64,000 bases of DNA, from assembly GCF_016903815.1 (NCBI RefSeq), contig NZ_CP069973.1. One strand, written 5' to 3'. Every line of letters begins with the position of its first letter. Position 1 is the stretch's first letter. This DNA is from Escherichia coli (GTDB lineage: Bacteria > Pseudomonadota > Gammaproteobacteria > Enterobacterales > Enterobacteriaceae). Both the position numbers and the translations under genes were made by a program. Below the pieces are notes generated by a model. It did not search any database. It saw only the letters and a program-made list of their open reading frames with translations, and had not been told where the DNA came from. This document shows positions 12,722-14,873 of the stretch, piece after piece.

Positions 12722-14873
12722 ATGGCATTAACCGCCGCGCTTAAAGCGCAAATTGCCGCCTGGTATAAGGCGCTTCAGGAACAGATCCCCGACTTTATTC
12801 CCCGTGCGCCGCAGCGGCAGATGATTGCGGACGTCGCCAAAACGCTGGCCGGAGAAGAAGGGCGGCATCTGGCGATTGAAGCCCCCACCGGCGTTGGGAA
12901 AACGCTCTCCTATTTGATCCCCGGCATCGCCATTGCCCGCGAAGAGCAAAAAACGCTGGTGGTGAGTACCGCCAACGTGGCATTGCAGGATCAGATCTAC
13001 AGTAAAGATTTACCGCTGCTGAAAAAGATCATTCCCGATCTTAAATTCACTGCCGCTTTTGGGCGTGGGCGCTACGTTTGCCCGCGTAATCTGACGGCGC
13101 TTGCCAGCACTGAGCCCACGCAACAGGATCTGCTGGCGTTTCTTGACGACGAGCTGACGCCGAACAATCAGGAAGAGCAAAAACGTTGTGCGAAGCTGAA
13201 GGGCGATCTCGACACTTATAAATGGGATGGTCTGCGCGATCATACTGATATCGCTATAGATGACGATCTCTGGCGTCGTTTAAGTACCGACAAAGCCAGC
13301 TGCCTCAACCGCAACTGTTACTACTATCGTGAATGCCCGTTTTTTGTTGCTCGTCGGGAGATTCAGGAAGCGGAAGTGGTGGTGGCAAACCATGCGCTGG
13401 TGATGGCGGCGATGGAAAGCGAAGCCGTATTGCCTGACCCGAAAAATTTACTGCTGGTGCTGGACGAAGGCCATCACCTGCCGGATGTGGCGCGGGATGC
13501 GCTGGAGATGAGTGCCGAAATCACCGCGCCCTGGTATCGACTACAGCTGGACTTGTTCACGAAACTGGTCGCTACCTGCATGGAGCAGTTTCGCCCGAAG
13601 ACCATCCCGCCGCTGGCGATCCCTGAACGTTTGAATGCGCATTGTGAAGAGTTGTATGAGCTTATCGCCACGTTAAACAACATTCTCAATCTCTACATGC
13701 CTGCCGGGCAAGAGGCAGAGCACCGTTTTGCGATGGGCGAACTGCCAGATGAAGTGCTGGAGATCTGCCAGCGGCTGGCAAAACTCACCGAGATGCTGCG
13801 TGGGCCTGGCTGAGTTATTTCTTAACGATTTAAGTGAGAAAACCGGCAGCCATGACATTGTACGTCTGCATCGGTTGATTTTGCAGATGAATCGCGCGCT
13901 GGGGATGTTCGAGGCGCAAAGCAAACTCTGGCGGCTGGCGTCTCTGGCGCAATCTTCCGGTGCGCCGGTGACTAAATGGGCGACGCGGGAAGAGCGCGAA
14001 GGGCAGCTGCATCTCTGGTTTCACTGTGTGGGTATTCGTGTCAGCGATCAGCTGGAAAGGCTGCTGTGGCGCAGTATTCCGCACATTATTGTCACCTCCG
14101 CAACCTTGCGTTCGCTGAATAGTTTTTCGCGTTTGCAGGAGATGAGTGGGCTGAAAGAGAAAGCGGGCGACCGTTTTGTGGCGCTGGATTCCCCCTTTAA
14201 CCACTGCGAACAGGGCAAAATTGTTATTCCCCGGATGCGCTTTGAGCCTTCCATCGACAACGAAGAGCAGCATATTGCCGAAATGGCGGCCTTTTTCCGT
14301 GAGCAGGTGGAGAGCAAAAAACATCTCGGTATGTTGGTACTGTTTGCCAGCGGACGGGCGATGCAGCGCTTTCTTGACTATGTGACGGATTTACGCCTGA
14401 TGTTGCTGGTGCAGGGCGATCAGCCACGTTATCGCTTAGTTGAACTGCACCGCAAACGCGTTGCCAACGGTGAGCGTAGCGTGCTGGTGGGCTTACAGTC
14501 CTTTGCCGAAGGTCTTGATCTGAAAGGCGATCTGCTCAGCCAGGTGCATATCCACAAAATCGCTTTTCCGCCCATCGACAGCCCGGTGGTGATCACCGAA
14601 GGGGAATGGCTGAAAAGCCTCAACCGCTATCCGTTTGAGGTGCAAAGCCTGCCGAGCGCTTCGTTTAACCTGATTCAGCAGGTTGGGCGACTGATTCGAA
14701 GCCACGGTTGCTGGGGGGAAGTGGTTATCTACGACAAACGCTTGCTGACCAAAAATTATGGCAAGCGACTACTGGATGCATTACCGGTATTTCCGATAGA
14801 GCAACCGGAAGTCCCTGAAGGTATAGTTAAAAAGAAAGAAAAAACGAAATCCCCACGCCGTCGGCGGCGTTAA
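12722..14873 (+). pseudogene. dinG: ATP-dependent DNA helicase DinG, interrupted by a +1 frameshift (extra G in a G-run near 13802..13805)
   Basis: Two ORFs (12722..13813 and 13728..14873) together reconstruct the 716-aa DinG: frame 1 ends …EMLRGPG*, and frame 2 continues …GLAELFLNDLSEK…; 361 + 355 aa = 716 if one base is removed. Confidence 0.8.

Follow-up and report, generated by a model that had tools for sequence, protein, structure and literature searches.

A one-base insertion splits dinG in a large sub-lineage of Escherichia coli sequence type 405

The gene dinG, which encodes a DNA helicase, lies on the plus strand at 12722..14873 of the 64,000-nucleotide stretch of Escherichia coli DNA analyzed here (contig NZ_CP069973.1 of assembly GCF_016903815.1; hereafter the window), where its reading frame is broken by a single inserted base. 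In the list of open reading frames (ORFs) of 12500..15100, the frame-1 ORF that starts at ATG 12722 ends in ...LAKLTEMLRGPG at a premature TGA (13811..13813, +), which gives an N-terminal ORF (12722..13813, +) of 363 aa composed of 361 native DinG residues followed by Pro-Gly. The frame-2 ORF carries on as ...CCVGLAELFLNDLSEK... until the stop at 14871..14873, and the out-of-frame C-terminal half of the gene (13800..14873, +) can be read from a GTG start as fMet followed by native residues 361-716, for a total of 357 aa. Upon alignment of 13740..13870, and comparison of the whole gene, with dinG of strain EE72d and of K-12, we found that the sole length difference is an extra G in the run at 13802..13804 (+), where the window reads cgtGGGcctgg and both references read cgtGGcctgg; the pseudogene consequently spans 2152 nt instead of the 2151 nt of intact alleles. 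Deletion of one G restores a 716-aa ORF (361 + 355 aa) that is identical to EE72d DinG (WP_001522662.1), carries three substitutions relative to K-12 DinG (T317S, F507V, and E527K), and matches residues 1-716 of Protein Data Bank entry 6FWR, chain A (E-value 0, 1620 bits). This full-length homology identifies the repaired gene product as DinG, an XPD/Rad3-like superfamily 2 iron-sulfur (Fe-S) helicase. Beyond the indel, the window differs from EE72d dinG by one synonymous single-nucleotide polymorphism (SNP) at 13985, and the out-of-frame half carries no further lesion.

An earlier note, made from the window sequence alone, had proposed that dinG is split by a one-base insertion with a stop at 13811..13813 and a continuation in frame 2, and had asked for an alignment to reference dinG. 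Both the ORF list and the alignment described above bear this out, and the lengths it gave (361 and 355 aa, 716 aa once repaired) are exact. It had further described the lesion as an extra G in a G-run; the extra G stands, with the qualification that the run measures only 3 bases, and 2 in the ancestor. A tract of this size is too short to belong to the class of homopolymers behind sequencing errors or phase variation. In strain 7/2, whose sequence over this span is identical to the window, RefSeq annotates 12722..14873 as dinG, a pseudogene with the note "frameshifted", and no other gene of that strain is marked as a pseudogene within the 50 kb that overlap the window. Since every listed genome has one dinG locus, there is no compensating second copy.

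At 12688..12707 (+) we found an exact match to TATTGGCTGTTTATACAGTA, which we take to be the dinG LexA box (Lewis et al. 1994), and the 100 bp 5′ of the dinG ATG, this box included, are identical to K-12, in agreement with the earlier note's description of the box as intact. With a LexA box in its promoter, the split gene would still belong to the SOS regulon. Downstream, ybiB (14901..15863, +) is intact and encodes WP_001522664.1 in frameshifted and intact strains alike; it starts 27 nt past the end of dinG and 1,088 nt past the premature stop. The two genes form a dinG-ybiB operon under LexA control (PMC10123104).

Of the two motor domains of DinG, the first contains the Fe-S and Arch domains as insertions (PMC6300356; PMC11981726). 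Upstream of the break, in motor domain 1, the window encodes the Walker A motif GVGKT (57), the four Fe-S cysteines Cys120/194/199/205, and motif II, DEGH (248), together with Pfam DEAD/DEAD_2 matches at 31-97 and 198-264. These cysteines are presumably the ligands of the Fe-S cluster (Ren et al. 2009). A review also notes the CCCC motif (PMC11981726). What lies 3′ of the break comprises TSAT (motif III, 458), the P motif AFPPID (614-619), motif VI, QQVGRLIR (652), and the Pfam Helicase_C_2 match at 529-688. The break at residue 361 thus falls between motifs II and III, within the region into which the Arch domain is inserted. We placed residue 361 only by the sequence motifs and the published statement on the Arch domain (PMC11981726), because an AlphaFold2 model computed for this purpose from nine aligned sequences was unusable, with a mean predicted local distance difference test score of 35.8, and was discarded.

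Translation from the LexA-controlled start would stop after the 361 native residues and Pro-Gly, and the product would lack what follows: the remainder of the segment with the Arch insertion, motif III, and all of the second motor domain (HD2). No single polypeptide from this locus carries both motor domains, as motor domain 2 is encoded only in the other frame, past 13811..13813. HD2 supplies seven of the ten or eleven single-stranded DNA contacts and forms one half of the ATP site; helicase activity falls at least 100-fold when single DNA-binding residues are substituted (PMC6300356). Because HD2, with its DNA contacts and its half of the ATP site, is absent, and in view of established knowledge of the family, we infer that the 1-361 fragment would be unable to act as an ATP-driven 5′-3′ helicase. 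The truncated helicase that the earlier note predicted agrees with this picture, with both Helicase_C_2 and motif III encoded past the premature stop.

The insertion is not confined to the window. We searched 5,426 complete E. coli genomes with an exact 81-nt probe across the insertion junction and found it matched exactly in 51; all others scored below 99%, that is, with at least one difference. The 51 carriers stem from unrelated projects and years. Sweden, China, Japan, Norway, the USA, and Pakistan are among the countries of collection, and the sampled sources include human blood, urine, and faeces as well as surface water, estuaries, and one wild bird. Across 3,401 nt, at least 30 of the carriers are identical to the window. 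Strain 7/2 (NZ_CP023820.1) is one base apart from the window over the first 50 kb (36970, T vs C), and strains 2779 and 5283 are identical to the window across 14900..39899, base 36970 included; this base falls in the 3′ end of ybiT (35381..36976). The exact 363-aa product was also found on at least 1000 contigs in public collections (NCBI, ENA, Logan, and UniRef), for instance in E. coli BIDMC 77, where it is named "hypothetical protein AE52_02659". In the position index of public assemblies the product appears in 1,556 blocks, 1000 of them with a longest contig of 50-200 kb, and contigs of this size look like short-read draft assemblies.

Named carriers belong to sequence type 405 (ST405), phylogroup D: WCHEC96200 (PMC5762679), KY1497 (PMC7035895), and PEC1020 and PEC1021 (PMC13098264). 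Five "strain 405" records are also among the 51. At a threshold of at least 99% identity to the window over dinG, we obtained 94 genomes, 51 with the insertion and 43 without it, and the allele is accordingly present in 51 of about 94-96 complete ST405-like genomes. Among the insertion-free genomes, which include an O102:H6 isolate, 50579417, Z1002, YDC107, and DA33137, 41 of the 43 are one position away from EE72d over a 2,200-nt query, consistent with the window allele minus the G. The remaining two are EE72d itself and AR_0067, whose insertion-free dinG ranked below the listed matches and probably has a further difference. A lesion that recurs in independent projects and is absent from close relatives, with 51 carriers against 43 near-identical non-carriers, has the distribution of a genuine pseudogene.

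Across the whole group the downstream 49 kb are near-invariant, with 0-3 differences, and two derived markers of other, dinG-intact sub-lineages were found in this flank. The first, 40269 C>T, is nonsynonymous in an MFS transporter gene and marks an ST405 sub-clade; its derived T was found in 24 genomes, all of them dinG-intact, and in none of the 51; the C allele is ancestral because it also occurs in other lineages. Position 40269 is housed in a cluster of GH31 glycosidase, MFS transporter, and LacI regulator genes (37156..42233) that appears to be accessory; an MFS probe from the cluster matches only 575 of the 5,426 genomes. The second, 60054 C>T, marks a different ST405 sub-lineage and introduces a stop codon within dgcI (about 59739..61067, +), a diguanylate cyclase gene that is intact in the window. 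We verified this stop in E597, and it can be inferred in E118, WP4-W18-ESBL-09, WP7-S18-ESBL-09, and FDAARGOS_1282 because these show a changed dgcI product name together with a single mismatch. In all five genomes dinG is intact. The three derived states (dinG GGG, 40269-T, and 60054-T) never occur together in one genome, and this mutual exclusion fits clonal descent and argues against recurrent mutation.

Taken together, the recurrence of the insertion, its restriction to one clone, and the linked markers leave us highly confident that the split dinG is a true loss-of-function allele, inherited by vertical descent in a large ST405 sub-lineage. In this scenario one G would have been inserted into the GG at codon 361 in the ancestor of that sub-lineage and passed on vertically from there, and the markers point to a single origin. 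The insertion looks recent because a single synonymous SNP accompanies the indel and the out-of-frame half has not acquired a second lesion.

Loss by descent from one ancestor has to be weighed against several observations that fit it less well. Support for a single origin comes from parsimony and from the mutual exclusion of two linked markers rather than from a whole-genome tree, and no SNP uniquely common to the frameshift genomes was found in the 49-kb flank. In addition, AR_0067 (NZ_CP032261.1), FDAARGOS_1370 (NZ_CP070098.1), and FDAARGOS_1371 (NZ_CP070077.1) have an intact dinG on a far-flank haplotype (39900..64000) identical to that of the window, from which most other intact ST405 genomes among the matches listed differ; these three may be basal relatives of the frameshift clade or revertants. 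Two properties of the break itself would also leave some room for residual function. The insertion places the GTG at 13800 in frame with the C-terminal half, in a 14-nt overlap with the stop of the N-terminal ORF, and if Gly-tRNA shifted by +1, from GGG onto GGC, the native sequence would return, such that low-level slippage could regenerate wild-type DinG.

An inherited loss need not be neutral, and one explanation compatible with it is that inactivation of DinG, or lowered ybiB expression through polarity, aided the expansion of the ST405 sub-lineage. On the latter, it is plausible that Rho-dependent polarity of the untranslated mRNA reduces ybiB expression, because ribosomes following the premature stop leave 1,088 nt untranslated before ybiB and a consensus scan of 12400..16100 found no promoter-like site on the plus strand inside dinG. 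Terminator-like hairpins in 12400..16100 are weak ones only and fewer than in shuffled controls, so that the consensus scan gives no firm indication of how ybiB is expressed, and a C-over-G scan 3′ of the premature stop for Rho loading returned few mildly C-rich windows, which is evidence neither way. In favor of selection are the frequency of the allele, both among the complete ST405-like genomes and on the public contigs, and the standing of ST405 as an expanding high-risk clone (PMC13098264). Independent DinG lesions also exist in other E. coli lineages: P0006 is truncated at 395 aa, P0018 is a C-terminal fragment whose call starts at Met358, and P0026 lacks 48 aa in frame. Each of these is rare, however, at 1-12 contigs, and since they are sporadic we see no sign of widespread convergent dinG loss; a dinG match covers at least 80% of the gene in 5,420 of 5,421 genomes, a figure that bounds large deletions and not small lesions. 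Published dinG-null phenotypes are likewise mild, with deletion in E. coli causing minor sensitivity to ultraviolet light (UV) and H2O2 and a small part in azidothymidine tolerance (PMC11981726). Hitch-hiking with resistance plasmids and clone-defining changes would explain the frequency equally well, and we regard selected loss as unlikely.

The two properties of the break noted above raise a different prospect, that of a functional split gene, in which N- and C-terminal fragments reassemble, or of a leaky frameshift, in which +1 slippage on GGG-C yields wild-type DinG. The N-terminal and C-terminal pieces would cover DinG exactly, both ORFs are called by a public gene caller, with a Helicase_C_2 match in the 357-aa ORF, and the C-terminal half has no added inactivating mutation. 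Its missing decay is explained equally well, though, by a recent origin. The cut, moreover, lies past DEGH (248) and ahead of motif III (458), inside the Arch-carrying segment of motor domain 1 (PMC11981726). No Shine-Dalgarno-like sequence was found before GTG 13800 or before any later in-frame start codon, and expression from GTG 13800 would need inefficient termination-reinitiation. To our knowledge, no split helicase of the XPD/DinG family has been described. Slippage fares little better, given that the site has no prfB-like signal and that the GGC codon before the stop is unable to re-pair in the +1 frame. We therefore consider retained activity by either route quite improbable. We give still less credence to a bolder version, whereby the insertion makes a translationally coupled two-ORF gene with reassembly, or an active SOS-induced N-terminal fragment (with the Fe-S domain and predicted helices binding single-stranded DNA-binding protein), either of them selected in the epidemic expansion of ST405; this would be a long shot.

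Programmed recoding was a further candidate, which we rejected on sequence grounds. The site, CGU GGG CCU GGC UGA, has neither a CUU-U-type slippery codon nor an AGGGGG element that could act as a stimulator in the manner of prfB. Nor is it conserved: none of the 43 closest intact genomes has the shift, and neither do the nine other DinG sequences of E. coli and related enterobacteria that we examined.

A reversible, phase-variable switch, with the G-run as a contingency locus that toggles DinG, would account for the presence of GG and GGG within one clone and for the three intact genomes that share the far-flank haplotype of the frameshift group. The GG and GGG states are nevertheless unmixed with respect to the linked markers 40269 and 60054, and just two states were seen in a tract of 3 nt. 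Runs of 2-3 bases slip at no appreciable rate, and known contingency tracts are ~7 bases or longer. This makes phase variation very hard to credit.

Finally, the earlier note had left the choice between a genuine pseudogene and a sequencing error, of which the former holds: although the insertion alters the length of a G run and single-base indels in homopolymers are frequent on some long-read platforms, a base-calling artefact in a strain with an intact 716-aa dinG is next to inconceivable because the insertion recurs across independent genomes, assemblies, and RefSeq annotation, being identical in the 51 complete genomes of unrelated projects and present as its truncated product in the 1,556 index blocks, mostly with contigs of 50-200 kb, with a run of just 3 bases, with dinG the sole flagged pseudogene in the 50-kb overlap of strain 7/2, and with GG called consistently in the 43 near-identical genomes, so that the site is not generally error-prone. 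Resequencing that showed one fewer G was the outcome the note had set against its own proposal, and the independent assemblies that carry GGG in effect answer it in the negative.

With an inherited loss of function as the reading we retain, ST405 carriers are natural dinG mutants, although of modest practical value. Together with Rep and UvrD, DinG has a role in removing R-loops and in replicating highly transcribed regions (PMC11981726); these functions, and the minor tolerance to UV and peroxide, should not be assumed in carriers. Because the published null phenotypes are mild, we expect the phenotype of the ST405 allele to be subtle. YbiB is an ObgE-interacting DNA-binding protein tied to persistence, and its SOS induction may be weaker in carriers. 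The single G is also a handy marker that divides ST405 sub-lineages. The allele calls for caution when SOS and helicase phenotypes are studied in ST405, and it will not surprise a specialist: it is an ordinary lineage-specific frameshift pseudogene that leaves knowledge of DinG or of pseudogene formation unchanged. The lesion is already on record through the RefSeq annotation and the truncated product in UniRef. Our literature searches, in which the surname "Ding" dominated the matches, found no paper that discusses the dinG lesion, and the full texts of two ST405 genomics papers (PMC11934165 and PMC13098264, 1,778 genomes) contain no mention of the dinG gene, pseudogenes, or frameshifts, with "ding" present only in author surnames.

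Between rhlE and dinG, at 11830..12551 (+), the window carries a PaaA2-family antitoxin (146 aa) and a ParE/RelE toxin (93 aa). The K-12 counterpart of this pair is ybiA, which encodes a NADAR N-glycosidase on the opposite strand, and homology to K-12 picks up again about 100 bp 5′ of the dinG ATG. The stretch with the PaaA2/ParE pair is covered to at least 80% in 324 of the 5,426 complete genomes. A second RelE/ParE toxin, with a helix-turn-helix antitoxin, lies between dgcI and rimO at about 61137..61842 (-), according to the annotation of strain 50579417, which is one base from the window there. Positions 1..284 (+) hold the 3′ part of tnpA, which encodes an IS200C-family transposase.

The closest characterized counterpart of the split gene is K-12 DinG (b0799; PDB 6FWR/6FWS), an XPD/Rad3-family superfamily 2 Fe-S helicase of 5′-3′ polarity in the SOS regulon. 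The window shares with it the locus order rhlE ... dinG-ybiB-hcxB, all motifs at the DNA level, and a promoter and LexA box identical over 100 bp. It departs from K-12 in that the frame is broken at codon 361, which leaves only the N-terminal half from the native start, and in the PaaA2/ParE toxin-antitoxin pair that stands in place of the upstream ybiA. Closer still is the intact DinG of ST405 and close relatives, WP_001522662.1, as in EE72d, 50579417, Z1002, and the O102:H6 M2021 isolates, in which the flanking genes and the toxin-antitoxin insertion are the same and the nucleotide sequence is identical to the window except for the inserted G and, relative to EE72d, one synonymous SNP; with GG at the site, that allele is 2151 nt long and encodes 716 aa, and it is annotated as functional. 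The +1 frameshift of prfB, the gene for release factor 2, resembles the dinG site in having an in-frame UGA soon after the shift site and in requiring a +1 shift to restore the frame, whereas dinG has no CUU-U-type P-site codon, no Shine-Dalgarno sequence 3 nt upstream, and no conservation. The window allele also resembles the lineage-specific pseudogenes of clonal pathogens that the Prokaryotic Genome Annotation Pipeline (PGAP) automatically flags as "frameshifted": an indel of one base leads to a premature stop, secondary decay has not yet set in, and the allele is fixed in a clone. From these it differs in nothing of kind; only the combination of an SOS-regulon gene with a global multidrug-resistant clone is particular to this case.

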